IMG/VR virus record: IMGVR_UViG_3300021426_000001
Length of the DNA stretch: 64,000 nt
Strand: one strand, 5' to 3'
From: a virus
Lineage: Duplodnaviria > Caudoviricetes
Shown here: positions 1,350 through 36,779 of the stretch, piece by piece
Layout: each line of letters starts with the position of its first letter
Position numbering within the stretch: position 1 is the stretch's first letter
Program-made: the position numbers and the translations under genes
The notes under the pieces: model-generated
The model's database searches: none
Told to the model about the DNA's origin: nothing
Seen by the model: the letters and a program-made list of their open reading frames with translations, nothing else

Positions 1350-1398
1350 AATATACAATAATTGCGCCCCTTTCTAAATGGTAGAGGCGCAAATTATT
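1350..1398 (-). promoter_or_regulatory. early promoter (TTTAGA-N17-TATATT) embedded in terminator-like hairpin
   Basis: -10 at 1350-1355, -35 at 1373-1378; imperfect inverted repeat around the -35. Confidence 0.75.
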
Positions 1399-1409
1399 TT
1401 TTCTTTAAG

Positions 1410-2195
1410 CTAGATCTTGAACTGCTCTGGGTGGTCGTGCTTGAAGTTCTCGAACATCTTCTGGCAGAGCTGATTGAACTTGTTCATCGGCAGCTTAGAG
1501 CTATTCGAGAAGTCAACGATAGATCTGAAGTTCCTGATGAAGTCCACGAGTGTCAGATCTTTTACCCTAGTAGCGCTAGTGATCTCCCATACGCCCTCTT
1601 CGTTAGCGTAGTGCAGAGACCAGCAATCTGAGTGGTTGTACATGTCATCCACGTAGCTCTCTACACGGCTCATCGGAAGTCTAGACAGAACGCCGACGAC
1701 CATCTTAGCTCGATCTGGATTCAGAGGAATAGATCCAGTGAGCTTCTCATCGTCTTTGAGGCTGCGGATCTCTTCGTAGAGCTTGTTGTAAGCTTCAACT
1801 CGGCTGTCTGTAATGTCACGATGGACATCTACCTTGGACACGTCGAGAGCTTCTTTTACAAGGAATGCGATAGCCTCTCTGTTCTCGTCTGTGAGCTTCT
1901 CATGAAGTCTATCAGCGACGAACTTCTCGGATGCTTCCTGAACGGTGTTTACCATTCTCTCCTCTACTGCTTCGAGCGCAGCGTCTTTATCCTTGGAAAA
2001 CTTTGCGCAGTACTCTGCGATGTACTGATGAGCAGCATCTTCCAGCTTGTCAGAGTGATCCTTTACTCTGGCTTCCATAGCGCCTTCGAGCTCTCGGATG
2101 AACCCGTTATACTCTTCGATAGCGTGCTGGTCATTTCCGCACTTAGACTCGAACAGCTTCTTAAGGTCATCGAGCACTTCTCTCATTGATCTCAT
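1410..2195 (-). CDS. hypothetical helical protein
   Basis: 261-aa ORF in operon. Confidence 0.7.
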   Translation of the reverse strand: MRSMREVLDDLKKLFESKCGNDQHAIEEYNGFIRELEGAMEARVKDHSDKLEDAAHQYIAEYCAKFSKDKDAALEAVEERMVNTVQEASEKFVADRLHEKLTDENREAIAFLVKEALDVSKVDVHRDITDSRVEAYNKLYEEIRSLKDDEKLTGSIPLNPDRAKMVVGVLSRLPMSRVESYVDDMYNHSDCWSLHYANEEGVWEITSATRVKDLTLVDFIRNFRSIVDFSNSSKLPMNKFNQLCQKMFENFKHDHPEQFKI

Positions 2196-2875
2196 TTCAC
2201 TTCCCTCCCTGATTCTGCGTAGACACAGAAGAATCCAGGATCTGCGTCATCATCCCAGTCTTGAACGTTGATGATTAGCTGCTTGTCTGTAACTAATGTG
2301 TCGAATAGGCTGTCCATGAGCGCTTCCCACGTGTCATAGACGTTCTGGTCATCTTCGTCTGGTCTTATGTATTTGTTCGTGCTCTTGTTGAAGCACTTTC
2401 TCTTGAAGTCTGCCATGTACTTCTCGACTTTCGGCCACATAGCGCTGAAGTCGTCGCCGAGATACATCAGCTTCGGCTTGTCCATGCTCATAGCGCCAGA
2501 TCCCTGATCGATGACGCAGTAGACATGATCTCTCGTGATCTGCTCGCGCTTGTAAGCCTTCGTGGCCCTCATCTCTTCCATGATGCTCGGCCAAACCTCG
2601 CGCATGAACAGTTCAGAGACCGAATTATACTCATGAGCACAGAGCTGAATAGACTCCAGCGAGAAGCTGTGTCCAGCGAGATTGATGTCGCTCTTAGCTG
2701 CCCATTTCGGAATCGAGACTTGAACTGCCTCTTGATCAAGCTGTTTGATGTCGTCTGATCTTCTCACGTTAGTCGGCTCGTTTCTCAACAGCCATCTGAA
2801 ATTGATCCTTGGACTGAAGTCGTTTGGATCAAAGATGCGGTCGAACACTAGCCACATATCTTCAAATTCACCCAT
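2192..2875 (-). CDS. hypothetical protein
   Basis: 227-aa ORF in operon. Confidence 0.7.
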   Translation of the reverse strand: MGEFEDMWLVFDRIFDPNDFSPRINFRWLLRNEPTNVRRSDDIKQLDQEAVQVSIPKWAAKSDINLAGHSFSLESIQLCAHEYNSVSELFMREVWPSIMEEMRATKAYKREQITRDHVYCVIDQGSGAMSMDKPKLMYLGDDFSAMWPKVEKYMADFKRKCFNKSTNKYIRPDEDDQNVYDTWEALMDSLFDTLVTDKQLIINVQDWDDDADPGFFCVYAESGREVK

Positions 2876-2877
2876 TT

Positions 2878-3444
2878 TTAGTCATCCTCGTTTTCTTCTT
2901 TCCATTTCTTGTAAGCCTCGGCCCTGTGCTTGTTGAAGGTCCTCAGGTCGACTTCTTGCAGCTTCGCGTAGTCACGATTGCACCAGTAGTCGACATAGAG
3001 ATTGCCGTCCTTGCCGATGTTGAACATCTCTTCTGACGCGTAGTTGATCTCAGCGAACGGAGTGATGCGCATAGCCTTCAGCTCTTCACTTTCCTGGAGA
3101 TGAGAGTAGTCAGGGAATCGCCAACCATCACTGCACTTCTCTACCTTCTCGTAGATGAACTCATGCCAGAGCTTAGACTCGTTCCAGTACTTATTGTCTC
3201 TGTCGCTTCTGAGACCGAGGATCTTGATGATGTAGTTTCCACCGAACGGAGACTTGAAGCATCTCCCAACGAGCTGCTGAACTGTCTCTTCAGACGCATC
3301 GAAAAAGTCCATAATGCGCAGAAAGAAGTAGTCCTCTAAGTCGAAAGGCTTTCCATCTCTCATCAATTTGAGCCCCTCAGGAAGGTCTTCGACCTTAGTA
3401 CTCAGCTCATGGAGCTGTTGAAGGTTCATATCTTCTAGTTTCAT
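2878..3444 (-). CDS. hypothetical protein
   Basis: 188-aa ORF, GGAG RBS. Confidence 0.7.
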   Translation of the reverse strand: MKLEDMNLQQLHELSTKVEDLPEGLKLMRDGKPFDLEDYFFLRIMDFFDASEETVQQLVGRCFKSPFGGNYIIKILGLRSDRDNKYWNESKLWHEFIYEKVEKCSDGWRFPDYSHLQESEELKAMRITPFAEINYASEEMFNIGKDGNLYVDYWCNRDYAKLQEVDLRTFNKHRAEAYKKWKEENEDD

Positions 3445-3453
3445 TGTTTCTCC

Positions 3454-3804
3454 CTACAGGTGTCCCTGCTTTCTCATGAACTCGTACCACTTCCCTCTAG
3501 CAGTCTCAGCTTCCTCTGGCGTCGAGAAGGCTGCTAGTCTATAGCCCTGATAGTCGGAATCCTCGAACTTCCAGCTTCCGTCTTTCTTGATCTTGTAGTA
3601 GGTTCTGCACCAGTCCCAGTCCCAGTCTTCCCAGGTGCCAGCACGGCAGTACACTTCCAAGAACCACATTCCGTGCTGTCTCACGATCCTGGCCTGATAC
3701 ATATTCTTATAGTGAAGCGTTTTCTTTCGCTCAGGAAGAACGACTGATACCAAGATCGCCAGAATGCACATAACGATCGATAATAAGATCCCAGCTGTGT
3801 TCAT
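3454..3804 (-). CDS. hypothetical membrane-anchored protein
   Basis: N-terminal hydrophobic helix ILLSIVMCILAILVSVVL. Confidence 0.65.
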   Translation of the reverse strand: MNTAGILLSIVMCILAILVSVVLPERKKTLHYKNMYQARIVRQHGMWFLEVYCRAGTWEDWDWDWCRTYYKIKKDGSWKFEDSDYQGYRLAAFSTPEEAETARGKWYEFMRKQGHL

Positions 3805-4370
3805 TCAGCTTTCTCCTCGGATTTCTCTTTGGATTTCTCTTCCTTCAGTCTCCAGAACTCTCTAGCGATAGTGTCAGTGACTCTGAAGTTGTTGCCGTCG
3901 TAGATGTCGCAGCAGAGACCAACCTCGGAAGCGGGCCTGCACTTCTCGTAGACAGCCTCCCAGAACTTCTCACGATCTTCCCAGTCAGGGAGATCGAATC
4001 CCTCGTCTGTCTGGTTCTCGTACCAGAACGGACGAAGATTAACGTTCTCCTTGAGGAACTTGGCTGTGCTGTTCGACGGGAAGAACTGGATAGCGACATA
4101 GTTGACGCCGTCAATGGTCTTAGCGAATACGACAGCCTGGAGCTGGTAGTCCCAGACTCCGCCCTTGCGAGGATCTTTCGTATCTTTCTCTAGAGCTTCT
4201 ATCACGTCGAACTCACCTTCCATGTTCCTGTAGAAGCAGTCCCATCTGAGCATGTCCTTCGGGACCCACTCGATGAACTTCTCTCGCAGATCAGCCAGAT
4301 ATTCTCTAGCTCTGTCCACGTCCGCGAACTCTGCGTTCTCTTTGAAGAGATATGCGTAGAACACTTTCAT
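3801..4370 (-). CDS. hypothetical protein
   Basis: start moved to MKVFYAY (ATGA overlap with upstream stop). Confidence 0.65.
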   Translation of the reverse strand: MKVFYAYLFKENAEFADVDRAREYLADLREKFIEWVPKDMLRWDCFYRNMEGEFDVIEALEKDTKDPRKGGVWDYQLQAVVFAKTIDGVNYVAIQFFPSNSTAKFLKENVNLRPFWYENQTDEGFDLPDWEDREKFWEAVYEKCRPASEVGLCCDIYDGNNFRVTDTIAREFWRLKEEKSKEKSEEKAE

Positions 4371-5794
4371 CGACATGTGTGTGTCTCCCTGAACTGCTTG
4401 ATGAACTCTTCCTTCCTCGGCGTCTTCTCGTTCACATTGAAGTACCACTCGAGTCTCTGGTCTGTGTTGTACTCTTGCTCGTTAGCGGCGTTCTTGATGT
4501 CCAAGCAGCGCTTCTCCATGTACTCTTCGAGCGACTTAGTGCCGTAGTGCTCGATGAAGCCGTTCGAGAAGTCTGGCGGAACGACCTGACCAGACATCGG
4601 ATTCTGTGGCTTTCCAGTTGCGCTGAGGCAGGCGTGAGGAGAGCTGATGAGAGCCGAGTGAATGATGTGCTGGCGCATTGGAAGTCCAGTTCTGATCATC
4701 GGCTTGCAGTACCAGTCTTCTGGGAACGGCTGAGCGTACTTCACGTCTGCCGGGCACGGAGTTCTGAATCTCTGACGCACTGGCTTGTCCTCGTACAGGA
4801 CGTGACCGTTGTCGCCGTAGTACATCCAGTTGAACTTGATGATGCTAGCGCAAGCGAACGTGTGGCGGTTCTCAGACATCCACTCCTGAAGTGTCTTTCC
4901 GTTGAGATTCAAGAACTCGTCAGCGTCCAAGAAGAGCATCCAGTCGTAGTCATCGCCGAATGTCTCGTAAGCCCACTTGTAGATTCCAGCTTGGTAGCCC
5001 ATGCTAGCGAGTCTGGTTCTGCCGCGACAGTCGAACTGATGAATGTCGTTGTGAGCGAGATCGTTGAGGCTGTTGAAGACTTGCTCCTGACCAGTCTCTC
5101 CCTCGTCATCGTTGTTGAACACGTAGAAGTGATTGACGCCGAGATTGCGGTAGTACTCTACCCACTCTTTGATGTATCTCTCTTCGTGCTTCATGATTGT
5201 GACGACAGCGAAGCGAGTGCCCTTGAGAACGACTTTCTCGTAGATCTCAAGGAACTTCTTCCATGCCTGGCTCGGATCATCTGCGTTTTCTTCGTAGCGG
5301 CCAAAGCAAGCTACTGGCGCTTCTTCCAAGAGTCCCTGTTCGAACCACATGCGGTCAGCCTTTCTCTCGATGCAGCTGAGAATTCTCTTAGCAGCGTTCA
5401 CATTCATGACGAAGCCGTTGAACCAGCAGACATGCTTATCCTTAGAGACCATCGGTGCGAAGGCGCCAGCGATGTGAGCAGTCTGAGCATTCTCTGCCTT
5501 GGCGAAGTAGAGTTCGCAGTCACGACCGAACTCTCTCTTCCATACGTCTCGGACCATCGGCTGTGCATTGTTCTGCATAGCTGCGCCCTTTGTGTGAAGA
5601 TAGAGAACTGGCTGATCCAGCTGGACTGAGAGGTTAGCTGCCATAGTGAGACCGGGCAGCTCGTAGAGTTCACCAGGCGCTTCTTGTTCGACAGCTATGA
5701 CTTCGTATTTCTTAGAGAGCCACTTGAGCATCTCTTCTTTGATCTTGAGACCTTGCTCGGTCTTGAGAACGCCGAGCACGCATCTTCTCTTCAT
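4367..5794 (-). CDS. two-domain glycosyltransferase (C-terminal GT2-like / Glyco_tranf_2_4 domain; N-terminal LYLHTKG domain)
   Basis: MKHEERYIKEWVEYYRNLGVNHFYVFNND and DWMLFLDADEF (DxD) motifs. Confidence 0.8.
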   Translation of the reverse strand: MKRRCVLGVLKTEQGLKIKEEMLKWLSKKYEVIAVEQEAPGELYELPGLTMAANLSVQLDQPVLYLHTKGAAMQNNAQPMVRDVWKREFGRDCELYFAKAENAQTAHIAGAFAPMVSKDKHVCWFNGFVMNVNAAKRILSCIERKADRMWFEQGLLEEAPVACFGRYEENADDPSQAWKKFLEIYEKVVLKGTRFAVVTIMKHEERYIKEWVEYYRNLGVNHFYVFNNDDEGETGQEQVFNSLNDLAHNDIHQFDCRGRTRLASMGYQAGIYKWAYETFGDDYDWMLFLDADEFLNLNGKTLQEWMSENRHTFACASIIKFNWMYYGDNGHVLYEDKPVRQRFRTPCPADVKYAQPFPEDWYCKPMIRTGLPMRQHIIHSALISSPHACLSATGKPQNPMSGQVVPPDFSNGFIEHYGTKSLEEYMEKRCLDIKNAANEQEYNTDQRLEWYFNVNEKTPRKEEFIKQFRETHTCR

Positions 5795-5822
5795 AAGTTG
5801 AATTTCCTTTTAAGTTATGCGC

Positions 5823-5830
5823 TATTTATA
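5823..5830 (-). promoter_or_regulatory. T4-type late promoter TATAAATA
   Basis: exact match, intergenic, upstream of glycosyltransferase. Confidence 0.65.
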
Positions 5831-5836
5831 GACTAG

Positions 5837-6439
5837 CTAGACGCCCAACAGATTGCGAATCATAGCGAAGCCCTTGTTTATGCCCTGCTGGGTCTTGAGC
5901 TCCTTCAAGAGATGCTTCACGTCGTTGAGGTGTGCCTTGATGGCTGTGAGATTCTCAGCGTCTGCCTTGTCAGCTACGTCTTGGTCAGTGAGCTTGTCGA
6001 GGTCGATCACGTGATCTGCTGGACGATCCATCGGATCCCAGCTTGACGTGATGACTTGGAACAGCTTGTGGTCTCGTGTAGCGAAGTAGCAACGGTACCA
6101 GTAGCAGTTCGTGCAGTCGTAGTTTTCATTCATGAAGTCAGGGAAGGAGCTGTCGATCTCCTTGCGGAATGCTTCGAAGTCCTTCTTGAAGTCTTCCCAG
6201 ATCTGAAGATCTTCGTCTTTGTCGTCGTGACCGTAAGGATACGGATCTAGAACGTGTCTGTCTTCGTAGTGGTTGAAGTTCTCCATCTTCTCGTAGAGAT
6301 CCGAGAACCACATGTAGCTCCATTCGTCCATTCCGCCGTCTTCGTCGCCCTGCTTGCATGCGCCGAGGAAGATATACTTGTCGCTCGGCTTTCCATACTT
6401 GCTGAATAGAGAGTCGATCATGTTAGTGTACTTGTTCAT
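5837..6439 (-). CDS. hypothetical protein
   Basis: 200-aa acidic ORF. Confidence 0.7.
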   Translation of the reverse strand: MNKYTNMIDSLFSKYGKPSDKYIFLGACKQGDEDGGMDEWSYMWFSDLYEKMENFNHYEDRHVLDPYPYGHDDKDEDLQIWEDFKKDFEAFRKEIDSSFPDFMNENYDCTNCYWYRCYFATRDHKLFQVITSSWDPMDRPADHVIDLDKLTDQDVADKADAENLTAIKAHLNDVKHLLKELKTQQGINKGFAMIRNLLGV

Positions 6440-6749
6440 CTGCGAACAGCTCCTTGTACTTGTTCATAAAAGCTTCGATAGATAGAGCGATTGGGAAGTA
6501 TGCCTGTTCCTTCTTGCAGTCTTCGTAGATCTCCTTGACCTTTCCGAATGCACCGAGCTTGATGCAGAACGCTACACGATTCGGAAGCGGTAGAGTAGCA
6601 ATTATCTCTTCGAACTGTGGACTCTTGTGAAACTCTTTGATGACTTCCCTTGGTGGATGCACTGGATCACAGCCGGGATGATTCTTGTCTAAGAACTCGT
6701 GCCACTTTTCTCTGGCTATTTGTCCATTGCGTTTCTTTTCTTCTATCAT
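6423..6749 (-). CDS. hypothetical protein
   Basis: start moved to MIEEKK after AAGGA RBS, downstream of promoter. Confidence 0.65.
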   Translation of the reverse strand: MIEEKKRNGQIAREKWHEFLDKNHPGCDPVHPPREVIKEFHKSPQFEEIIATLPLPNRVAFCIKLGAFGKVKEIYEDCKKEQAYFPIALSIEAFMNKYKELFADEQVH

Positions 6750-6779
6750 GTCTATTCCTTGTTGAAGTTTTGCATATAC

Positions 6780-6818
6780 AATATAGGAAAAGAGCACGGC
6801 TTTGTAAACCGTGCTCTT
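6780..6818 (-). promoter_or_regulatory. early promoter TTTACA-N17-TATATT fused with terminator hairpin
   Basis: 10-bp stem AAGAGCACGG/CCGTGCTCTT with -35 in loop. Confidence 0.85.
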
Positions 6819-6844
6819 AAAAGTTCAGGAAAATTTACAGAAGT

Positions 6845-7192
6845 CTATGGAGCATCAGTAGCTTCTGGTGCGACTTGCGACTCGGCTTTAGCCTTCTCTT
6901 CCTCTGCGACTTCCTTCTCCATAGCAGCAGTGAGCTTCTTGGACGGATAGAAGACGACGTTGTCAGCGTCTACGATCTTCGCGAAGATAGGGACGATCTT
7001 GCCCTCTATAGACACGAAAGCCATAGCGTTCACGACGAAGTCTTCGCCAGCAGAGACTGCGAACGGGAACGGGAACACTGACTTTCTGTCTGGATCGTTC
7101 ACCATCTTCATCATCTCGCTGTAGCTGAGCATCTTCTTCTCTACGAGAGCCATCAGCTTCTTGTTCTCTTCTTGTGTCAGATTGTCTGGCAT
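6845..7192 (-). CDS. hypothetical protein
   Basis: start moved to MPDNL after GGAG; FPFPF..V motif resembles 11348..11680. Confidence 0.65.
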   Translation of the reverse strand: MPDNLTQEENKKLMALVEKKMLSYSEMMKMVNDPDRKSVFPFPFAVSAGEDFVVNAMAFVSIEGKIVPIFAKIVDADNVVFYPSKKLTAAMEKEVAEEEKAKAESQVAPEATDAP

Positions 7193-7194
7193 TG

Positions 7195-7425
7195 TCAATT
7201 CTCCATGTACTTGATGCCCTGATAGTCGCATCCGAGACTGTTTCTAGCTGTCTCGACTCCCTTCAGAGCGGTGTTCTGGCAGACCTGTTCAGGCCAGCCC
7301 TCGGATCTGCACTCGCCGAAGATCGCGTTTCCGAACTGCTGCAGGGCCTGATCTTTGTCAGTTCCCAGATAGTAGATCTTGGTGTCGTCTTCTTCGTGCT
7401 TATAGACTAGGTATGCTTTATTCAT
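7195..7425 (-). CDS. hypothetical protein
   Basis: start MNKAY, GAGG RBS. Confidence 0.6.
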   Translation of the reverse strand: MNKAYLVYKHEEDDTKIYYLGTDKDQALQQFGNAIFGECRSEGWPEQVCQNTALKGVETARNSLGCDYQGIKYMEN

Positions 7426-7853
7426 TTGAAAACCTCGAAAGGTAGCTTCTCTTTGACGCAGTTCTTGAGCCCCTCCCACTTGATGAGTCTCGTGGTAGAG
7501 TTAGTGTCGGTGATGTGGCCGATGAGCAGAGTCTCTGGATCGATAGCGTCTTCATCTACGAGATAGACTTTGATCACGCCGTTCAAGAGTCCGATCTGGC
7601 CATCTTCCTTCATCGGTGTGAAGATCGGACAAGCAGCGCCGAGAATAGTTCCGATGAGCGGACCACAGATGATAGTGTCGCCGCAATATCCACAAGCTGG
7701 CTGGATGTTGTTCGACTCCATGATGATCTTCGCTACGAAAGATCCTATTCTCTGCTGTGACCATTTTCCGATGTCATCTTCACATGTAGAAGTGTACTTG
7801 ATGACAGGAGCAGCGTAGCTGAGTCGCTCTACATCGCATTTTAAGTATTTCAT
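7422..7853 (-). CDS. hypothetical protein
   Basis: 143-aa ORF, GAGG RBS. Confidence 0.65.
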   Translation of the reverse strand: MKYLKCDVERLSYAAPVIKYTSTCEDDIGKWSQQRIGSFVAKIIMESNNIQPACGYCGDTIICGPLIGTILGAACPIFTPMKEDGQIGLLNGVIKVYLVDEDAIDPETLLIGHITDTNSTTRLIKWEGLKNCVKEKLPFEVFK

Positions 7854-7870
7854 AGTTGTACCTCTCTCAG

Positions 7871-8302
7871 TTAAAATAGGATCTTTTTGAGCTTCTCTAA
7901 AAAGCTGAGCTTCTTCTGCTTGATCTCTATTGGGTCACGTTTTGGAGGTACATACTTTGGAACATCCTTCCATGCTGCATCTACAGCCTGACCATCTGAG
8001 GGATTAGCAGCAGTCTGGCCGCAGAATCCAGTCTCTTCTGGCGGATCGGGATCATAGACGATCTTTCCAGTAGGAACAACTCGGACTTGAACGAGAACGC
8101 AGTCTTTAGTGTTCTCTGGATCTGACTCTTTGATGGCCATCAAGCGCTTCTTAGCGAGACCGAAGTCGACATCTAAGACGACAGAGTCATCTAGCTCTCT
8201 AGGAGATCCGTCTTTACTATTAGACACGAGAGTGACTATCGTGTCTGATTTTCCTCTTCTTCCGATCGTATATAGCGGTAGATTGTCAAGCATCGCTGCC
8301 AT
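7871..8302 (-). CDS. hypothetical protein
   Basis: 143-aa ORF, AGGAG RBS. Confidence 0.65.
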   Translation of the reverse strand: MAAMLDNLPLYTIGRRGKSDTIVTLVSNSKDGSPRELDDSVVLDVDFGLAKKRLMAIKESDPENTKDCVLVQVRVVPTGKIVYDPDPPEETGFCGQTAANPSDGQAVDAAWKDVPKYVPPKRDPIEIKQKKLSFLEKLKKILF

Positions 8303-8313
8303 TTTCAGTTCTC

Positions 8314-8565
8314 CTATAGTCTCGGTCCGTCGTAGTTGACTGGAGAGATGTTCTTGATTCCGATGGTCGTCTTCGGCTTCTCTTCTCTTCTTTCTTCTCG
8401 TTCTCTGAATATGATGTAGGAGTTCTTCGACTTGATTTCTTCACGGATCTTCGACGCCATTTTTCCGATCTTCCTAGAGATCAAGTTGTCGATCTCGGAC
8501 TCGGTTGCTCCGTCTGGAATTTCGAGACTGTCAGTGAATGTGTACTCAAAGCTTAGTTTTCTCAT
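8314..8565 (-). CDS. hypothetical protein
   Basis: ORF in operon. Confidence 0.55.
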   Translation of the reverse strand: MRKLSFEYTFTDSLEIPDGATESEIDNLISRKIGKMASKIREEIKSKNSYIIFREREERREEKPKTTIGIKNISPVNYDGPRL

Positions 8566-10818: not shown

Positions 10819-10840
10819 TGAGTCTCCTGTTTTTGTGGAA

Positions 10841-10880
10841 AATATACAACAAATTCTGGATCTTGTAAACCCAGAATTTG
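10841..10880 (-). promoter_or_regulatory. early promoter fused with terminator hairpin
   Basis: -10 10841-10846, -35 10864-10869; stem CAAATTCTGG/CCAGAATTTG. Confidence 0.85.
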
Positions 10881-10890
10881 AACTTTTTTC

Positions 10891-11169
10891 TTATTTCCAC
10901 TCTTCAGGCTTGAATCCGTACTGCGAGAAGAACCTGTAGTAGTGCCAGCGCGCAGTCTCTAGCTCTCTAGCTTCCTCATACTGTTTCTGTGTAGAGAAAC
11001 ATGTGATCTTGCCGTCGTAGTTTAGAATGCTGCCTTGCGGATCTCTTGCGATGACATATCGATTCAGCTGCTTGTTCCATACACACGGACGAGTTGCAGA
11101 AATGATAGGGCCTTTCGCAGCAGCGATCTGTCTGAGAAAGTTGCCAGGAAGTTTTTTCAAAGTTACCAC
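10891..11169 (-). CDS. hypothetical protein
   Basis: ORF in operon. Confidence 0.6.
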   Translation of the reverse strand: MVTLKKLPGNFLRQIAAAKGPIISATRPCVWNKQLNRYVIARDPQGSILNYDGKITCFSTQKQYEEARELETARWHYYRFFSQYGFKPEEWK

Positions 11170-13656: not shown

Positions 13657-13693
13657 AATATAGGAAAAGCGCACAGCTTCGTAAACCGTGCGC
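13657..13693 (-). promoter_or_regulatory. early promoter TTTACG-N17-TATATT with hairpin
   Basis: stem GCGCAC/GTGCGC around -35. Confidence 0.75.
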
Positions 13694-16420: not shown

Positions 16421-16460
16421 AAAATAAGAAATTCCGTCCGAGTTGTAAACCCAGACGGAA
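16421..16460 (-). promoter_or_regulatory. early promoter with hairpin
   Basis: TTTACA-N17-TATTTT; stem TTCCGTC/GACGGAA. Confidence 0.75.
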
Positions 16461-20393: not shown

Positions 20394-20422
20394 AATATAG
20401 GATTTCGAAGCGATTTTGTAAA
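20394..20422 (-). promoter_or_regulatory. early promoter TTTACA-N17-TATATT
   Basis: consensus match. Confidence 0.75.
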
Positions 20423-21630: not shown

Positions 21631-21676
21631 AATATAGAAAAAAGAGGAAGCGCTTGAAAATTATAGCAGCTTCCTC
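21631..21676 (-). terminator. intrinsic terminator overlapping promoter -10 TATATT
   Basis: stem GAGGAAGC/GCTTCCTC followed by U-run on minus strand, then TATATT. Confidence 0.7.
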
Positions 21677-21688
21677 GGTAAGTATTAT

Positions 21689-21848
21689 CTCCGCGTCTAT
21701 CGGAAGACCATTGGCTGGTCGCGATAGACCATTGGGGCGGAGTTTGTCACCTTAGCAGCTCCCAACGCTGCGGGTGGACTAGTTCGCTTATTTCGTTTCT
21801 GAGCCTTCTCAGGGCTCGGTCCTGTAGCACTAACTGGGGCTACGACCG
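21689..21848 (-). ncRNA. unclassified structured RNA (four stem-loops plus possible pseudoknot)
   Basis: nested CTCCGC/GCGGAG, GTCTATCG/CGATAGAC, GACCA/TGGTC; GCAGC/GCTGC; GAGCC/GGCTC; GTAGC/GCTAC. Confidence 0.55.
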
Positions 21849-21858
21849 GTCTGGAATC

Positions 21859-25180: not shown

Positions 25181-25215
25181 AATATAGTAAAAAGAGGCCA
25201 CTTTGTAAATGGCCT
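25181..25215 (-). promoter_or_regulatory. early promoter with hairpin
   Basis: TTTACA-N17-TATATT; stem AGGCCA/TGGCCT. Confidence 0.8.
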
Positions 25216-25624: not shown

Positions 25625-25690
25625 AAAAAAGCCTCCATGATCCAATATAGTAAATCATGGAGGATATTGATTTTGTCTCTATAGATGTCT

Positions 25691-26659: not shown

Positions 26660-26663
26660 TTAG

Positions 26664-27188
26664 TTAGTCCTTTGTTGAAGTTGCAGATACAATATAGGAA
26701 TTTCTCAACAGCTTGTAAACCGTATTTTTGAGATTTTCTAGCTCTTCTGGGCTGTTGTTCTTTGCTTCGACTAGCTTCTTCTTATAGAATTTCTTCTTAA
26801 ACTCACAGATGCCCTCTAGGACGCGGCATCCGCACCACCAGCAGTCATCGAACTTCTTAGCTTTCTCAAATGAAAAAGTTCCATCGTCGAGAAGTTTTAG
26901 AAGATAGTGAGCGTCTTTAGAGTTGTTCTCGATATGTCCGTAGAATCCGTGACAATTGGGACGCCTGCCTGCTACTGTCCACTTCAGGGTGATGTAGTAT
27001 GGCTGATACTTCTCGCCAGGCCAGTCCTTAGCGAAGAACAGATCTACCCACTTGAACAGCTCTGGACGCTCGCTGCTGTTCGTGATCTTTCCAGTGTCTG
27101 CGATATTGCACAGCTCTTCGTAAGCTTTTGGAAACTCATCCAGACACTTGATTCTGTACTCGATTTCTTCTATCGTATCTCTACTCAT
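26664..27188 (-). CDS. hypothetical protein
   Basis: 174-aa ORF; internal early promoter at 26691-26719. Confidence 0.65.
   Translation of the reverse strand: MSRDTIEEIEYRIKCLDEFPKAYEELCNIADTGKITNSSERPELFKWVDLFFAKDWPGEKYQPYYITLKWTVAGRRPNCHGFYGHIENNSKDAHYLLKLLDDGTFSFEKAKKFDDCWWCGCRVLEGICEFKKKFYKKKLVEAKNNSPEELENLKNTVYKLLRNSYIVSATSTKD
26691..26719 (-). promoter_or_regulatory. early promoter TTTACA-N17-TATATT
   Basis: consensus match with conserved leader AACTTCAACAAAGGA. Confidence 0.75.
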
Positions 27189-27984: not shown

Positions 27985-27985
27985 A

Positions 27986-29057: not shown

Positions 29058-29064
29058 ATTTTGA

Positions 29065-29093
29065 AATATAGAAAAAGTCTGTGATTTTGTAAA
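29065..29093 (-). promoter_or_regulatory. early promoter TTTACA-N17-TATATT
   Basis: consensus match. Confidence 0.8.
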
Positions 29094-29110
29094 TGGTAAA
29101 AACATAGGAG

Positions 29111-29138
29111 GGGACTGGCTCAATACGAAACCAGTCCC
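29111..29138 (-). terminator. hairpin after DUF2828 gene
   Basis: GGGACTGG/CCAGTCCC stem. Confidence 0.55.
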
Positions 29139-29171
29139 GCACCCCTTTCCAAAAATCCGTTTCCAGATTTT

Positions 29172-30671: not shown

Positions 30672-30685
30672 TTTGAAGTTTTCCT

Positions 30686-30756
30686 TCGGTTCAAAGTTGA
30701 TCAAGATGGAATTTTGATTGTGCGAACCAAGCATATCAAATTGCTGTTACCATCTT
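30686..30756 (-). ncRNA. structured 5' leader RNA of the DUF2828 gene
   Basis: AAGAUGG/CCAUCUU and UUUGAU/AUCAAA stems, ACAGCAA internal loop, apical loop complementary to RBS-adjacent GAACCGA. Confidence 0.6.
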
Positions 30757-30775
30757 TCGATTTGTTTGTAAGCCA

Positions 30776-30804
30776 ATTATAGAAACAATTGCTAGATTTG
30801 TAAA
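30776..30804 (-). promoter_or_regulatory. early promoter TTTACA-N17-TATAAT
   Basis: consensus match. Confidence 0.8.
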
Positions 30805-30827
30805 CCGAATTCTTTGTAAATTCAAGT

Positions 30828-31964
30828 TTACAAATCATCATCTTCATCATTGAACTTCGTCTTTAGCTCGTCTACGACATGACGGAAGATCTTCTCGTTG
30901 ACGGACTTGCCGCAAGCGACTTGGATAGCCATGTTGCCTACGAACTTTCCGCCGAGAGAGATAGCCTGCTCGTAGCGCTCACGACCAGTCAGACCAGAGA
31001 TCTGGTAGACGACCGTAGAGATCTGAGCGAGCAGAGAGCGGCATCCCTCGTCGAGGTTCTCAGCGTAGTACTTCATCTGCGGGAGCTCTTCCGGAATAGC
31101 AGCCTTGTACTCCGGATCGACCTTGAGAGTCTTTACGTCGAAGTGCAAGCGGATGTCCTTCTTAGTGATCCCAGAGATCATGTGGAACTTAGAGAGGTAT
31201 TCCAAGCCCTTGACCTTTACCTTGAAGCCAGAGTCGAAAGTGACTACGAAGCCCTCGTGATCCACGTCAAGCGCTCTCGCGTACTTGACCATCTCCTGGT
31301 AAGTCTTGAACTCCTTCATGGTAGAATAGCGGACTCCGATGCGGCCAGCGATCTCTATGATGTCGATCATCTCAGACTCTTCATGATTCTCGTCGAGAGC
31401 GCCCAATAGAACCAGACCCTCGTAGTTGTAGTGACATACGTGCTGATCTTCCCTAGAGACGATCTCGAAGCAGTAAGTCCAGCCGTAGTCCAAGTAGCGG
31501 TCGCAGATTTCCTGCCCTACGCACTTGTCAAGCCACTTCTGAGCCCACTTAGCCTGATCAGAGGTGAATGAGCCGCCAGTCTTGATGATCCACTTGCCGT
31601 CGTAGTAGAATAAGATGCCGAGCGAGCCGTCGATCTTGTCCATAGCTCTGAAGAATCTCGTCATCTTCGGCTCGAAGCCGTGACCGAGCTTCTGAAGGAT
31701 CTTTCCGACTTCAGCGAGCTGACCGTCTTCTGTCCAGATCTCTTCAGTGTTGAAGAACTTGTTGAACGGCCAAGCGACGATGTCGCCAGTAGCCTTGTCG
31801 AACACGATGCCACGGCAGCAGAGAGTGATCTCGTCCCACGCGTGGTCATAGACAGTCTGTAGAGAGTACTTGAAGCCGATGAGCTTGCCGTCTTCGGACT
31901 CGTGTGAGTTTAGCCAGCCGAGCTTTTCATATTCTAAGCACTTTTCAAGAGTTAAGCAGTTCAT
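30828..31964 (-). CDS. RNA ligase 1 (T4 Rnl1/RnlA-like)
   Basis: CRGIVFD, PFNKFFN, KIDGSLG, TYCFEI, EGFVV, KVK motifs. Confidence 0.85.
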   Translation of the reverse strand: MNCLTLEKCLEYEKLGWLNSHESEDGKLIGFKYSLQTVYDHAWDEITLCCRGIVFDKATGDIVAWPFNKFFNTEEIWTEDGQLAEVGKILQKLGHGFEPKMTRFFRAMDKIDGSLGILFYYDGKWIIKTGGSFTSDQAKWAQKWLDKCVGQEICDRYLDYGWTYCFEIVSREDQHVCHYNYEGLVLLGALDENHEESEMIDIIEIAGRIGVRYSTMKEFKTYQEMVKYARALDVDHEGFVVTFDSGFKVKVKGLEYLSKFHMISGITKKDIRLHFDVKTLKVDPEYKAAIPEELPQMKYYAENLDEGCRSLLAQISTVVYQISGLTGRERYEQAISLGGKFVGNMAIQVACGKSVNEKIFRHVVDELKTKFNDEDDDL

Positions 31965-32296
31965 ACCAGTTCATTTCCTTTCCACTTCAGAACCGGAGTG
32001 GTAGAGTGTGAGTACGGATCCGAGTTCGGTTCGATAGTCAGATTCTGTTTGACTTCTTCGTTTACAACTTCAGCAGCGATGCGCTTGATCATGTCATGGA
32101 GAGGTTCGCTCTTCAGCTTTTCGATTTCTTCTTTGAGAGCCTTTTCGCGGTCGAGGAAGAACTTCTTCTGTTCTTCGAGCTCTAGCTGAATGCAGCGGAG
32201 AGTCTCTTCAGTCATTACAGAAGCTAGCTTGTTTGCGCGATCGATGCTGATCTTGAGGTGGTCTCGTAAGAGTGATGCGAACATCGGAGTTTTCAT
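31961..32296 (-). CDS. hypothetical coiled-coil protein
   Basis: first gene after promoter. Confidence 0.65.
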   Translation of the reverse strand: MKTPMFASLLRDHLKISIDRANKLASVMTEETLRCIQLELEEQKKFFLDREKALKEEIEKLKSEPLHDMIKRIAAEVVNEEVKQNLTIEPNSDPYSHSTTPVLKWKGNELV

Positions 32297-32327
32297 TGTA
32301 GTAGGTCCTTGTTGAAGTTACATCTAC

Positions 32328-32365
32328 AATATAAGAAAATCGGGGCTTGTTGTAAACCCCGATTT
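32328..32365 (-). promoter_or_regulatory. early promoter fused with terminator hairpin
   Basis: stem AAATCGGGG/CCCCGATTT with -35 in loop. Confidence 0.85.
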
Positions 32366-32387
32366 GTTGATTTTATGCAAGTTTTTA

Positions 32388-32966
32388 TTAGATGTGCTTA
32401 TCTTCTTGAGCTCGATCACGATAGATTTCGCCAGCTTCGAGCGCTTCGTCGTGAGCTATGCAGAGCTGATCTAGCTCACGATCATCTTCAAGGATCCGCT
32501 GGATGAAGAACAGTGCAGAGTCTGCGTCCTTGAAGAGAACACCTCTTCCCTCGGGAACTCCCTTAGCGAGATCTACGTTCTCTTTCTTGTCGTCGACCAA
32601 GATGTCGCCCTCGTCGAGCTCCAGCCACTTGTCTATGCCCTTCTGCGTGATGATCACGTTCTTAGGATCGATCTCCGGGCAGTTCTTCTCCAGCCAGTAT
32701 CTCTTGCCAGCCTTTCCGCAGCTGAGAAAGATAGCAGATGCGATTCCGATCTCGACGTCTGGGTACTTCTTCTTGAGTTCGAGGACGCCGTTGTAGAGCT
32801 TGTGACCCTCTACGATCCACGGCATCGATGACCAGAAAGAAGCGCCGATCTTCTTGAGAAGATTCCAGTCGCACTTTCCGTTCTCTTTTCTAGCCTTGTA
32901 GAACTCGACCTGGTGATCGAAGTCGCACAAGACTCCGTCCATGTCGAGCATGATTCTTCTCTTCAT
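32388..32966 (-). CDS. HAD-family 5'(3')-nucleotidase-like phosphatase
   Basis: LDMDGVLCDF, GKRYWL, ILVDD motifs; start MKRRIML. Confidence 0.8.
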   Translation of the reverse strand: MKRRIMLDMDGVLCDFDHQVEFYKARKENGKCDWNLLKKIGASFWSSMPWIVEGHKLYNGVLELKKKYPDVEIGIASAIFLSCGKAGKRYWLEKNCPEIDPKNVIITQKGIDKWLELDEGDILVDDKKENVDLAKGVPEGRGVLFKDADSALFFIQRILEDDRELDQLCIAHDEALEAGEIYRDRAQEDKHI

Positions 32967-32970
32967 TTTC

Positions 32971-33402
32971 TTACTTCCTCGGATTGACGCAGAGTTCGCC
33001 AGGATAGTCCTCGAACGACTCAAGCATCTTTTGAACTGTTTCGGCCGGCACCGCATGAACGTTCTGGAACTGACCAAACATACGGTAGATGTCATACTTT
33101 GCGCCAGCCTCTTCAGCGATCTTAACATAGATGTCTACATCCTTCTTCTTGACGCTAGTGTTGGATACGATCACGACATCGCAGTTCTGGAGGGCCTCAC
33201 GAACTTTGTTCTGGCACCACTGATGAGCGAAGCCGATCTGGTTCGGATTCCAGTGGTAGCTGCCGTCTTCGTGAGTGAAGAACATGTCTGCTTCGAAGTG
33301 AGCAGTCGTTCGTCCCTCAGCCTGATATGCCTTGATGAGGCTGTTAGCGTGTGTAGACTTTCCGGAGCCCGGAATGCCGCGAATGATTACAAGCTTCTTC
33401 AT
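32971..33402 (-). CDS. P-loop kinase (AAA_33 / polynucleotide-kinase-like)
   Basis: IIRGIPGSGKST, EADMFF, AHQWCQ, VSNT, NVHAVP. Confidence 0.8.
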   Translation of the reverse strand: MKKLVIIRGIPGSGKSTHANSLIKAYQAEGRTTAHFEADMFFTHEDGSYHWNPNQIGFAHQWCQNKVREALQNCDVVIVSNTSVKKKDVDIYVKIAEEAGAKYDIYRMFGQFQNVHAVPAETVQKMLESFEDYPGELCVNPRK

Positions 33403-33418
33403 GTGTGTTATCCTGCAA

Positions 33419-33712
33419 TTATCCCTGTAATAGAGGTGAAAGTTTCTCTACGACCTTGTAGACCACGTAGATCCACGAGGTGCAGAAGTGAAGTATGCTC
33501 CAGAGGATCCCGTTGCCCAAGAAGTGCGAGAGAAACGCTGAAGCGAAGCAGCCGACGAGAGACGGTACAGCGACCTTTACTGTCAAGATTGGTCCCTGTC
33601 TCTTTCGGAGCACGTTTAGAAATAGAACGACGAGATCAGACCATGTGCGCTTTCTCGCGCTCATCTTCTTGAACCCATTGTTCTCTTCCGAAGTTCCAAT
33701 TAGTTCATCCAT
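33419..33712 (-). CDS. membrane protein (likely leaderless)
   Basis: hydrophobic C-terminal half ILWSILHFCTSWIYVVY. Confidence 0.6.
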   Translation of the reverse strand: MDELIGTSEENNGFKKMSARKRTWSDLVVLFLNVLRKRQGPILTVKVAVPSLVGCFASAFLSHFLGNGILWSILHFCTSWIYVVYKVVEKLSPLLQG

Positions 33713-33718
33713 GCGTTA

Positions 33719-33758
33719 AATATAGGAAAGTCCAGAAGTCTTGTAAACCCCTGGACTT
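33719..33758 (-). promoter_or_regulatory. early promoter fused with hairpin
   Basis: stem AAGTCCAG/CTGGACTT. Confidence 0.8.
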
Positions 33759-33796
33759 GGTTTTTCTCGCAAAAGCTAGAAATTAAAGCAGTTTCA

Positions 33797-34267
33797 CTAA
33801 GCGGCAGTTTCTACCGTTTCGACCTTCTTTTCCTTCTTAGGAGCCTTCTTTTCCTTCTTCGGAGCTTCCACGATCTTCATCGTGGCGAGATCTAGCTGAA
33901 GGATCTGGAGCGGCTGAGCCTGACCCTGCTTGGTCTTCGGAAGTTCGATAGCTGTGTAGTCGAACTCGTCGAGATCTGGCGTGTCAGTGAAGTCCACGAA
34001 GGAGACACGCTTGGAGCCGTCTGGGAATGTGACTTCGACATACGGATTCTTGGCTTTCTGACCGCTGTAGTCGTCGACCATCTTGTAGAGGCCGTCCTTG
34101 GTGCGATTGAGCTTGAAAGCAGAAGTGACCTTGCCCTTGCCCTGGTGGATCAGGATGAAGTCAATGTCTTTGACCTTGATCTTGCTGAGGTTCCACCAAG
34201 CGAGCGTCTTGAAGAAGTCTGCGCCCTTGGAGTGAATAGTGAGGACATTTACGATTTTGGATTTCAT
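33797..34267 (-). CDS. hypothetical protein with basic APKKEKK repeat tail
   Basis: GGAG RBS; 21-bp tandem repeat. Confidence 0.7.
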   Translation of the reverse strand: MKSKIVNVLTIHSKGADFFKTLAWWNLSKIKVKDIDFILIHQGKGKVTSAFKLNRTKDGLYKMVDDYSGQKAKNPYVEVTFPDGSKRVSFVDFTDTPDLDEFDYTAIELPKTKQGQAQPLQILQLDLATMKIVEAPKKEKKAPKKEKKVETVETAA

Positions 34268-34281
34268 GAGTTAGTTCTCCA

Positions 34282-34725
34282 TTACATGGCAGTTTCTGGT
34301 TTGCCGAACAGATCAGTCAGCCATGAAATGTCTGATCCGTCGAATTCATATCGTTCAGTGATCGTTCCGTGATAGATGTTCGGATTGTCTTTGTCTTTGA
34401 AGAGTTGTCGGATGATGAAGATTGAAAGTGTCTTCTCGTCGTCTTTGGTCTCTCGATAGCTCACCTGCATGAACTTGTCGTCTATGAGCATCGGCTCTCC
34501 ATTCTCGCAATTTAGCTTAAGAGTGCAGTCGACTTTGTAATCGATAGCTAGCTTTTTCTCGAGCTCTGCCATCTTTCGATTGTACTCTTCAGTGAACATC
34601 TCATCTTCATGATAGGTATGTTCCCTTTTCTCCCAATAGAAGAAACGTCCGATATTTCTAGCGAGCTTGTGCCATGAGCGAACGTCATTCATGAGCTCGC
34701 AAGGGATTGCGAGAAGTTTAGCCAT
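34282..34725 (-). CDS. hypothetical protein
   Basis: ORF in operon. Confidence 0.65.
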   Translation of the reverse strand: MAKLLAIPCELMNDVRSWHKLARNIGRFFYWEKREHTYHEDEMFTEEYNRKMAELEKKLAIDYKVDCTLKLNCENGEPMLIDDKFMQVSYRETKDDEKTLSIFIIRQLFKDKDNPNIYHGTITERYEFDGSDISWLTDLFGKPETAM

Positions 34726-35485
34726 TCTTTACCTCGTTGTTTACTTTCACCCAGGCGTCTACTTCGTAACCAGTGAAGTTGAGATTGTCGCCAGTCCATT
34801 CAATGAAGCCCTTGTGCTTGTCGATGCAGCAGTTGATGTAGTGCTGATCGATGTCCCACTGAGTGTATTCACGTTCAGGGAACTTCTTGACCATCTGAGG
34901 AGCTTCCTGACCATTAGCCTTAGCTTCTCTGACAGTCTTAACGTAGTTATCGTAGTCGTAGCAGAAGTAGTCCGGTTCGATGTCCTTGTCGTGGGTGTGA
35001 CCGTACAAGTTGATGAAGTGAGTGTTGCCCTTTCCGAGATAGACCGGTTCATGAGAGAGGACGAAGTTGTCTTCTACGATGACCGGTGTGTCATAGACCT
35101 TGTCGAATCCGATCTCTTCGTAGAATTCGATTCTGGACTGACCATGGAAGTGAAGTGTGTCGTGGTTGCCGAGAACCAAGAAGAGACGGCGGCTGTCGCC
35201 CTTCATGCACTTCACGATGTCTTTGAGCAAGAGGAAGTCTCCGTCGTTCATCTGATGGCTGCCACCAGCGAAGTAGAAGTCGCCGAGGTTCCAGATGTCG
35301 CAGTCTTTTGGAAGCTTGTCGAAAGCTTTGAGAATGTCTTCCTTCATCTGAATCATGAGCGGAGTGTTAGCTGGATTCTTGTTCGGAGCTACCGTAGCAT
35401 ACGGACGATTGCAGAATCGGCAGATGTTCGGATGACCGAAGTGAAGGTCGGAAGTGATGAAAGTTTTGCGAGAGCGGAAGAGCAT
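34718..35485 (-). CDS. calcineurin-like metallophosphoesterase
   Basis: SDLHFGH, LGD, GNHD, SHEP, GHTH motifs. Confidence 0.9.
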   Translation of the reverse strand: MLFRSRKTFITSDLHFGHPNICRFCNRPYATVAPNKNPANTPLMIQMKEDILKAFDKLPKDCDIWNLGDFYFAGGSHQMNDGDFLLLKDIVKCMKGDSRRLFLVLGNHDTLHFHGQSRIEFYEEIGFDKVYDTPVIVEDNFVLSHEPVYLGKGNTHFINLYGHTHDKDIEPDYFCYDYDNYVKTVREAKANGQEAPQMVKKFPEREYTQWDIDQHYINCCIDKHKGFIEWTGDNLNFTGYEVDAWVKVNNEVKNG

Positions 35486-35515
35486 TTGAGCCTCCAAGTT
35501 GAAAGTTACGTGAAC

Positions 35516-35544
35516 AATATAGGAAATTGTTCACAGTTTGTAAA
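35516..35544 (-). promoter_or_regulatory. early promoter; hairpin GTGAACAAT/ATTGTTCAC covers the -10
   Basis: consensus match. Confidence 0.75.
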
Positions 35545-35553
35545 CCCAAAAAC

Positions 35554-35814
35554 TCAGTTTTCTCTGAGATGGTAGAATCCGAGACGCTTCAGAGCATCTT
35601 CTAGATCGTTGAAAGATCCGAACCAGACCTTGACTTCTTGGTCTACCCACGGCTTCACGATCAAAGCCTCTTCAGCAGATGTGTCATATCGGATGATGTA
35701 TTCTTGTCCGTACTCGTCCCAGAACTTGGTAGTGTTGAACTCAGCTGCGTGAAATCCTCTGAGCTTGCCCTCGAAGTTCTTGTACTTCCAGAGCGCGAAA
35801 GTTGAAGCGTCCAT
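35554..35814 (-). CDS. hypothetical protein
   Basis: ORF in operon. Confidence 0.6.
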   Translation of the reverse strand: MDASTFALWKYKNFEGKLRGFHAAEFNTTKFWDEYGQEYIIRYDTSAEEALIVKPWVDQEVKVWFGSFNDLEDALKRLGFYHLREN

Positions 35815-35815
35815 T

Positions 35816-36103
35816 CTATACTGCCTCTTTTACTCGTTCCTTCCAGTCGTCAACGATCGATGTGATCCTCTCTGGAAGCGAAGCGATGTTTGAAGTTTGG
35901 AGTGTCTCCATTGGATTCCACTCGTCTATGATGAAAATTCTGCTGTTGCCGTAGACATACGAGATCATCAGCTCGTGGTCGCCATATCTGACCTTGATAG
36001 ATGCGCACTTGTTTGGAACGAAGTGATACTCAGTCCCGTGCTGAAGAGAGTATCTGTTGAGCATCTCTGACATGGTCTTGAATTCTTCGAGGTTGATGTC
36101 CAT
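35816..36103 (-). CDS. hypothetical protein
   Basis: ORF in operon. Confidence 0.6.
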   Translation of the reverse strand: MDINLEEFKTMSEMLNRYSLQHGTEYHFVPNKCASIKVRYGDHELMISYVYGNSRIFIIDEWNPMETLQTSNIASLPERITSIVDDWKERVKEAV

Positions 36104-36107
36104 AACC

Positions 36108-36245
36108 TTACCCAGTGATTTGACGGACCATGCTCCAGATCATAGAGATGACAGCTATGGTCCCTAGTCCAGCGAACAGCCAGATCACGACGTCGATCGG
36201 ATCAGCGTCAATGATCTTAGCTATCAGGTCAAAAAGCTTGTTCAC
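36108..36245 (-). CDS. 45-aa single-TM peptide (not in ORF track)
   Basis: GTG start; MNKLFDLIAKIIDADPIDVVIWLFAGLGTIAVISMIWSMVRQITG fills the gap. Confidence 0.5.
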   Translation of the reverse strand: MNKLFDLIAKIIDADPIDVVIWLFAGLGTIAVISMIWSMVRQITG

Positions 36246-36259
36246 CCTAAATTGTCGCC

Positions 36260-36718
36260 CTAAACCCAGTTGATCTGTCTCATAGATTCTGGCTCGTTGC
36301 AGAATGATCCATGGCCAAATTGAAGATCTTCGATCTTCCTGCAGAGATTAGAGAGCGCGAGGAAGAGAGGAGACTTGCGGTCGTGGTTGATTGCCTTGTA
36401 GACGTCATCAGCGATCTTGTCGAATGCGTCTGCGACTTCTGCCTTGAACATCTTGTTGATCTTTTCCTTCTCTTCCCTGACGGACTTGTAGTCGTCGTTA
36501 GCGAGCGCCCTAGAGATCCATGGAGCATCGATCATGGACTCAAAATCACTCACTCGATCAGACATCTTCTTGATCTTCTCGATGAGCGCCGGAGCCTTCT
36601 TAGCAGCTCTTCGTGCCTTAGCGCGTTCACGACGGCGAGCGATCTGTTCAGGTGTCTTTTCCACCTTGATGTGGTTTTCGTTGAGAACTTCGAGAGCTTT
36701 TTCGATTTTCATTTCCAT
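36260..36718 (-). CDS. hypothetical protein with Arg-rich helix
   Basis: IEKALEVLNE and TPEQIARRRER motifs shared with 40787..41689. Confidence 0.7.
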   Translation of the reverse strand: MEMKIEKALEVLNENHIKVEKTPEQIARRRERAKARRAAKKAPALIEKIKKMSDRVSDFESMIDAPWISRALANDDYKSVREEKEKINKMFKAEVADAFDKIADDVYKAINHDRKSPLFLALSNLCRKIEDLQFGHGSFCNEPESMRQINWV

Positions 36719-36743
36719 AGTGTTTTACCTCTTTTACACTGAA

Positions 36744-36779
36744 AATATAAGAAAATCCTGGGTGCTTGTAAACCCAGGA
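36744..36779 (-). promoter_or_regulatory. early promoter fused with terminator hairpin
   Basis: stem TCCTGGGT/ACCCAGGA. Confidence 0.85.

Follow-up and report, generated by a model that had tools for sequence, protein, structure and literature searches.

A stretch of 64,000 nt from an uncultured virus (IMG/VR record IMGVR_UViG_3300021426_000001; the whole stretch is referred to as the window) was analysed for short units that join an early-type promoter to a hairpin. The presence of repeated units of about 45 bases, in which the two arms flanking the -35 box pair with their own partner beyond chance, was confirmed. These units are probably composite promoter-terminator cassettes of the type named PeSL in T4-like phages, in which the upstream transcript would end and the next one would start. 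Termination and initiation as well as their efficiencies are what we infer from the sequence.

Early-type promoters and the hairpin around the -35 box

An exact search of the window for TTTAC-N16-18-TATATT gave 14 matches, all on the minus strand, while shuffled sequences lead to an expectation of 0.00. The sites with the exact pattern were used to build a two-block weight matrix, which extended the search to 19 promoter-like sites (Table 1). All of them are located on the minus strand, which is the gene strand, and none on the plus strand, in good agreement with the about 20 minus-strand promoters counted in the original prediction. The lowest matrix scores were obtained for the sites 21631, 55240 and 1350. 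A pattern search for TTGAC-type -35 boxes in the window found none. Fifteen of the 19 sites lie within 1-37 kb amid short open reading frames (ORFs), as is typical for PeSL in the accessory or hyperplastic regions of T4-like phages. The multiple copies (19 sites versus 0 expected) and the AT-rich upstream region also correspond to the sigma70-like early promoters of PeSL.

The consensus consists of a distal A-tract (GAGAAAAAC-like, at about -50), GG-TTTACAA, N11, a TTYY spacer end and TATATT, with a hexamer spacing of 17 nt. A conserved GTAA(C) follows 7-10 nt past TATATT at the presumed transcription start, and at most sites the ATG is found 21-37 nt past the -10. The -35 TTTACA, the 17-nt spacing and the A-rich upstream region are shared with the T4 early promoters (consensus TTTACW-N17-TAYWAT; PMC4122927), whereas the -10 TATATT with a T at position 5, the GG before the -35 and the GTAA about 7 nt past the -10 are not. 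Each cassette would represent a strong early promoter of the host-sigma70 type, presumably used by the sigma70 of the host. As a side observation, many early genes carry the leader CTTCAACAAGGA between GTAA(C) and ATG, which might be a special early ribosome-binding leader.

For every site the segment from -25 through the spacer end was folded. A hairpin bracketing the -35 was obtained at 10 of the 19 sites, with minimum free energies of -11.2 to -19.0 kcal/mol. These are the same ten sites at which an inverted repeat had been proposed, and the stems quoted for them were correct. The stems comprise about 9-16 bp and the loops 3-8 nt, with the -35 at the apex. The original prediction had placed the -35 in the loop of the hairpin. 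The hairpin does bracket the -35, but a large open loop is not formed, since the helix enters the -35: GGTTT pairs with AAxCC, TTT lies in the stem and ACA alone forms the loop, so that the -35 makes up the tip of a helix of 11-14 bp. The two arms fill the stretches that are not constrained by the promoter, from about -36 to -47 and in the spacer, and the stem sequence is different at each of the ten sites. A stable stem-loop at the promoter boxes, acting as potential terminator or attenuator, is likewise a trait of PeSL.

As a control, chimeras were composed of the upstream arm of one site and the spacer of another, which preserves the position-specific composition. The chimeras had a mean of -4.9 kcal/mol (sd 2.7) and a first percentile of -12.5 kcal/mol, an occasional chimera reaching -13, and 9 of the 19 cognate sites were beyond this percentile. 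When partners were permuted, the observed mean stem score was reached in 0 of 5000 cases. Furthermore, 211 distinct promoter instances were compiled from the window and from loci of 44 sources (IMG/VR and metagenomes), and a hairpin of -11 kcal/mol or better was present in 26% of them versus 3% of the chimeras. The statement that pairing is preserved while the stems differ thus stood up, as did the comparison with shuffled controls by which it was to be checked. That the pairing is a functionless by-product of the quasi-palindromic consensus and of base composition is hardly credible: GGTTTACAAxCC alone yields about 5 inner pairs and chimeras sometimes come to the energy given above, but the permutation, the excess over the 211 instances and compensatory changes at orthologous junctions (see below) contradict it. 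Chance pairing was rejected on the basis of these controls and changes.

Table 1 Promoter-like sites of the window with and without a hairpin around the -35
Feature	Position (strand)	Details
Composite terminator-promoter	1350..1398 (-)	Hairpin 1357-1398; weaker -35 TTTAGA 1373-1378; -10 TATATT 1350-1355; dG -17.3; stop codon 11 nt upstream of stem
Composite terminator-promoter	6780..6818 (-)	Hairpin 6790-6818, 13 bp, ACA loop; -35 TTTACA; -10 6780-6785; dG -19.0
Composite terminator-promoter	10841..10880 (-)	Hairpin 10850-10880, 14 bp; dG -15.4; found by terminator scan
Composite terminator-promoter	13657..13693 (-)	Hairpin 13669-13693; -35 TTTACG; dG -16.3; positional counterpart in G001 also with hairpin
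Composite terminator-promoter	16421..16460 (-)	Hairpin 16432-16460; -10 variant TATTTT; dG -18.2; L021 ortholog with different stem at equal position
Composite terminator-promoter	21631..21676 (-)	Hairpin 21644-21676, larger loop; weak -35 TTTTCA; 18-nt spacer; T6 run; dG -16.1
Composite terminator-promoter	25181..25215 (-)	Hairpin 25195-25215, 9 bp; dG -11.2
Composite terminator-promoter	32328..32365 (-)	Hairpin 32337-32365, 12 bp; dG -16.3
Composite terminator-promoter	33719..33758 (-)	Hairpin 33728-33758, 14 bp; dG -17.5
Composite terminator-promoter	36744..36782 (-)	Hairpin 36753-36782, 11 bp; dG -16.3
Early-type promoter without -35 hairpin	20394..20422 (-)	dG -2.8; orthologous junction in G001 also without hairpin
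Early-type promoter	26691..26719 (-)	Weak 6-bp, long-loop inverted repeat only
Early-type promoter	29065..29138 (-)	Separate terminator hairpin 29111-29138 in front; its T-run abuts the -35
Early-type promoter without hairpin, -10 TATAAT	30776..30804 (-)	Drives structured leader and DUF2828 gene; G006 ortholog also without hairpin
Early-type promoter, other subclass	35510..35568 (-)	Promoter 35516-35544; weak hairpin and T5 over upstream stop codon (35553-35568); 6-bp hairpin around -10 (35510-35534)
Weaker promoter-like site (TTTAGA) without hairpin	55240..55268 (-)	Inside or at end of ORF; likewise in G002
Early-type promoter without hairpin	58187..58215 (-)	Exact motif match; folding
Early-type promoter	62243..62320 (-)	Promoter 62243-62271; separate upstream terminator 62298-62320 and T-run
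Early-type promoter without hairpin	63040..63068 (-)	Overlaps end of upstream ORF
dG in kcal/mol.

Terminator features and the strand on which the hairpin is read

A consensus terminator scan that takes no account of promoters was run on three 20-kb segments. In 1-20 kb its top three terminator-like sites (16432-16460, 13669-13693 and 10850-10880) coincide with -35 hairpins, and 33728-33758, 32337-32365, 36753-36782 and 25195-25215 were among the best in 20-40 kb. In total, 7 of the 10 hairpins were picked up, and they lead the ranking in these two of the three segments. The stem starts 6-38 nt past the upstream stop codon at 8 of the 10 sites, the other two being located behind longer 3' untranslated regions (UTRs), and the intergenic order of stop codon, cassette, Shine-Dalgarno sequence and start codon is that of PeSL. 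Between the end of the stem and the -10 there are 1-8 nt, and 4-7 of the first 8 nt past the stem are T. The units therefore share with canonical bacterial intrinsic terminators a GC-containing hairpin of 9-16 bp, a loop of 3-8 nt, a directly adjoining U-rich tract and the position just past a stop codon. Unlike these, their tail and loop double as -10 and -35 of the next promoter, and the U-tract is interrupted.

Several features of the hairpins depend on the strand. G·U pairs amount to 12.8% of the stem pairs, and of 58 hairpins chosen irrespective of strand, 48 had their more stable fold on the sense strand and not on the antisense strand (Wilcoxon 3.5e-8). The last 8 spacer bases contain 5.0 T if a hairpin is present versus 3.1 if not (p=4e-11), and the reverse is true for A. 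Because the T-run is coupled to the hairpin, it is not a mere part of the promoter. It is also stronger 3' of the 3' arm (4.8 of 8) than the A-run 5' of the 5' arm (3.7 of 8). In most hairpins the centre of the loop is on the ACA of TTTACAA. The strand bias with its G·U pairs, the T-run linkage and the position of the loop fit an RNA terminator that is read from the gene strand and speak against a cruciform or a common protein-binding palindrome. Together with the compensatory changes described below, strand bias and T-run linkage indicate selection on the hairpin at the level of RNA structure.

The original prediction had named a cruciform that gates recognition of the -35 as alternative. In a wider form, a cruciform or a dimeric protein over the -35 would gate the promoter via supercoiling or a phage factor. 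DNA hairpins can serve as promoter signals, as in N4-type promoters, and near-perfect short-loop repeats centred exactly on the -35 would suit such an element. However, the stems differ at every site, hence there is no common protein site, and a complete standard sigma70-type -35/-10 pair is present. An A-run before the 5' arm that equals the T-run in strength is missing. Every G·U pair would moreover be an A·C mismatch on the other strand; because of these pairs and of the better folding of the sense strand (48:10) the cruciform is disfavoured. We regard regulation at the DNA level as very improbable, and the cruciform or operator was rejected due to strand asymmetry and stem diversity.

Some observations weigh against the interpretation of the units as terminator-promoter cassettes. 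The promoter consensus (GGTTT..AAxCC) by itself dictates the inner 5 bp of every stem, which leaves the outer 6-9 bp as independent evidence. The hairpins at 6780, 1350 and 21631 (3 of 10) miss the tail or loop criteria of the simple scan. Finally, the U-tracts are interrupted, and therefore termination may be partial. An alternative takes the hairpins as 3'-end RNA structures, mainly stabilisers, processing barriers or leaky attenuators and not efficient terminators, so that insulation would be minor. It would account for the C and A residues that break up the U-tracts and for the three sites just mentioned; cleaner stand-alone terminators with T5-T6 are used elsewhere in the phage (25632-25663, 37581-37607 and 62298-62320), and 'terminator/attenuator' is the wording of the PeSL authors themselves (PMC2839356). 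Nevertheless this alternative is unlikely, as the T-run, which is superfluous for a pure stabiliser, is enriched specifically behind hairpins and as one PeSL stem-loop cut lacZ expression about as strongly as rrnB T1 (PMC2839356).

In the cassette interpretation, the promoter would constrain the distal UP region, the -35 and the -10, leaving -36 to -47 and the spacer free to evolve complementarity. The upstream transcript would fold into a hairpin of 9-16 bp with the -35 sequence at its tip, UUU pairing with AAx and ACA forming the loop, and the T-rich spacer end together with UAUAUU, the -10, would serve as its tail. A polymerase arriving from upstream would terminate inside the -10 or directly ahead of it, while the new transcript would start about 7 nt past the -10. 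Each gene block would in this way depend on its own promoter and not on cumulative read-through across a 35-kb array of co-directional strong promoters. The proposal that one unit ends the upstream operon and starts the next is in accordance with all the sequence evidence (hairpin and U-tract after stop codons, conservation, strand bias, T-run linkage), but it is not new, as it equals the published PeSL concept (PMC2839356, PMC4122927).

According to one report, bacterial RNA polymerase stays on the DNA after 'recycling' termination and re-initiates at the nearest promoter (PMC11347151). With the terminator inside the next promoter, this distance would be zero, and termination and re-initiation might be coupled mechanically, beyond mere compaction, with an insulation that depends on promoter occupancy. 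A polymerase released at the U-tract would already be positioned at the next -10/-35 and could be transferred to it directly. In the opposite direction, a promoter-bound polymerase could block hairpin-dependent release. That many uncultured phages conserve the exact apex position, the ACA of the -35, agrees with such a coupling without demonstrating it, and we consider the coupling decidedly doubtful.

Stand-alone terminators were detected by the scan at 25632-25663, 37581-37607, 40742-40779, 44176-44199, 48306-48334 and 55468-55489. Three promoters that lack a -35 hairpin are preceded at short distance by a separate one (29065, 62243 and, weakly, 35516). The strong terminator 25632-25663 on the minus strand has a 10-bp stem (CCTCCATGAT/ATCATGGAGG) followed by CTTTTTT. 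Read with the last stem base, its 12-nt loop TTACTATATTGG yields TTTAC immediately followed by TATATT. This terminator resembles a promoter with collapsed spacer and is perhaps a degraded cassette, the '1/2 PeSL' of Comeau 2014. A non-coding stretch of about 180 nt (21677-21858, minus strand) separates an SPFH/Band-7 gene from the cassette 21631. Blocks of it, e.g. GCGTTGGGAG and CCAATGGTCTT, are kept in the related locus L021, and it looks like a structured 3' UTR RNA; Rfam gave no family match anywhere in the window including this stretch.

Conservation in related phages and gene content

The minus strand carries nearly all ORFs of the window, which has a GC content of 48%. Pfam matches were obtained for a T4 RNase H C-domain, a gp21-type prohead protease, Rnl1- and Rnl2-type RNA ligases, a dCMP deaminase, a dUTPase and a Ro60-like DUF2828 protein, and the T4 Gp23 capsid gene is present in a more distant syntenic relative (G005). 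This T4-like gene content supports the assignment of the window, which stems from an uncultured rumen phage, to the T4-like phages. DNA and protein searches of a public phage collection with the window matched no relative. A pattern scan of IMG/VR revealed the promoter type in many contigs of uncultured large phages, and syntenic relatives were found by matches of flanking proteins (45-90% amino acid identity).

For gene 33797-34267, a locus search with the single protein gave no hits, and an alignment-based metagenome scan yielded 9 loci. At the junction after this gene (site 33719), a helix of 14 bp is kept in one register in three lineages (window, L155 and L157 types). In the alignment 100% of the cells are paired, 3 pairs are changed on both sides, 4 exchange G·U for G-C or the reverse, and all pairs stay intact; shifting the partner by one column reduced pairing to 71%. 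As only five distinct sequences are included, this covariation lends support but is not conclusive. Single compensatory changes were seen in the orthologs of 25181 (L081, C:G to T:A) and of 32328 (L001, G:C to T:A). For 16421 and 13657, the ortholog or positional counterpart carries an entirely different stem at the retained position. The presence or absence of the hairpin matches the relatives at 5 junctions with hairpin and at 4 without, the latter being located before 34718-35485, between 20441 and 20048, between the Rnl1 and DUF2828 genes and at 55240. At the spot homologous to 21631, locus L021 has a plain terminator without -10.

A variant of the cassette occurs in related contigs (L106:3408-3460, minus strand; also L006, L043 and L078). 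It has a 13-bp stem (GGATTTTCTTGAG / CTCAAGAAAATCC) and an 18-nt loop that contains the -35, and the 3' arm abuts TATATT with no intervening T-run. The arm sequence is near-identical in the four contigs. A conserved cassette and a palindrome bound by a protein are both conceivable for this variant.

The original prediction had also assumed that the units insulate swappable gene cassettes. Individual insertions or deletions are bounded by cassettes. The 7-kb block at 26.7-33.7 kb, between the cassettes 33719 and 26691, is missing from G001 and G002, in both of which one cassette marks the joint. Gene 10891-11169 and cassette 10841 are both absent from G001, and the small gene that separates cassette 32328 from Rnl1 is absent from G006. 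A general enrichment at breakpoints was not significant, with promoters at 7 of 30 breakpoints versus 3 of 29 conserved junctions (p=0.30; G001, G002 and G003: p=0.30-0.62), in a test that is weak in both directions, as gene calls mis-assigned the promoters 26691, 29065 and 30776, small diverged genes raise the breakpoint count, and at the divergence of these relatives (about 50% amino acid identity) breakpoints are everywhere. This part of the proposal is thus backed by single cases and not by the enrichment test.

Some further genes of the window deserve mention. No early-type promoter is present from about 37 to 55 kb, a stretch that contains the gene of a sigma-70-family protein of 297 aa (46691-47584, minus strand). 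This protein matches Sigma70_r2 as its only Pfam domain and PHROG 351 'RNA polymerase sigma factor', exceeds T4 gp55 in length and is kept in G002 (54%) and G003 (43%). The gene of the gp21-type prohead protease (36800-37504, minus strand; Peptidase_S77 1e-34) is located directly upstream of an early-type cassette, with the dCMP deaminase and RNase H genes as neighbours and apart from other head genes. A patatin-like phospholipase gene (41692-42645, minus strand) shows 92% amino acid identity in G002, compared to 47-80% for neighbouring genes.

Comparison with known promoter-terminator cassettes

The fused terminator-promoter design is already published as PeSL. Arbiol et al. (2010) described about 50 PeSL cassettes per genome in the hyperplastic regions of RB49 and phi1 and distinguished five subclasses by the position of the stem-loop, including overlap with the -35 (PMC2839356). 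In lacZ reporter assays the PeSL stem-loop terminated about like rrnB T1, and the cassette was a very strong promoter (PMC2839356). Comeau, Arbiol and Krisch (2014) extended these "composite conserved promoter-terminator motifs" to T4/PST and KVP40/nt-1 (PMC4122927). The concept of the RB49/phi1 PeSL is the same as that of the units in the window, with experiments, including mini-circle formation, for the former, whereas the window phage is known from its sequence. The stem-loops of RB49/phi1, with stems of the type Gn-loop-Cn, most often lie over the -10 or in the stretch that separates it from the -35. In the window the dominant class is the one with the -35 at the apex (10 of 19), and the upstream and -10-wrapping classes are represented by single examples.

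A closer similarity exists to Vibrio phage nt-1. We read 42 kb of its sequence directly, in which the published stem type occurs five times. In 4 of 5 copies the -35 is inside the hairpin and the 3' arm fills the spacer, with TTTG or TTAG running into TATTAT, TATCAT or TTATTC. The nt-1 PeSL (AAAGGGTTGC-loop-GCAGCCCTTT, then TTTG and TATTAT) has the same geometry as the units of the window, and both the nt-1/KVP40 PeSL and these units combine a sigma70-like early promoter with a stem-loop in intergenic gaps of a T4-like phage. In contrast, the stems of nt-1 are near-uniform across copies (A3-4 G3 ... C3 T3-4), while the window phage has its own stem at each site. The boxes differ as well, with a -35 of TTGYVH in nt-1 and TTTACA in the window phage and a -10 of TAWWAT and TATATT, respectively. 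The window phage is further distinguished from nt-1/KVP40 by being uncultured, by its rumen origin and by its GC content. Overall, the window differs from nt-1 by degree.

No new mechanism is revealed by these data. What they contribute is comparative evidence that the RNA hairpin is selected for, and a view of how broadly the design occurs among uncultured large phages. New with respect to the original PeSL papers are the compensatory changes at orthologous junctions, the bias towards the RNA strand and the linkage of the T-run to the hairpin. The cassettes may be of use for annotating transcription units in metagenomic phage genomes and as compact (about 45 bp) parts that combine insulator and promoter. 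PeSL-type cassettes, so far described for a few cultured T4-like phages, would hereby be extended to an uncultured rumen lineage, and the design with the -35 at the apex was also seen in 44 other sequence sources.

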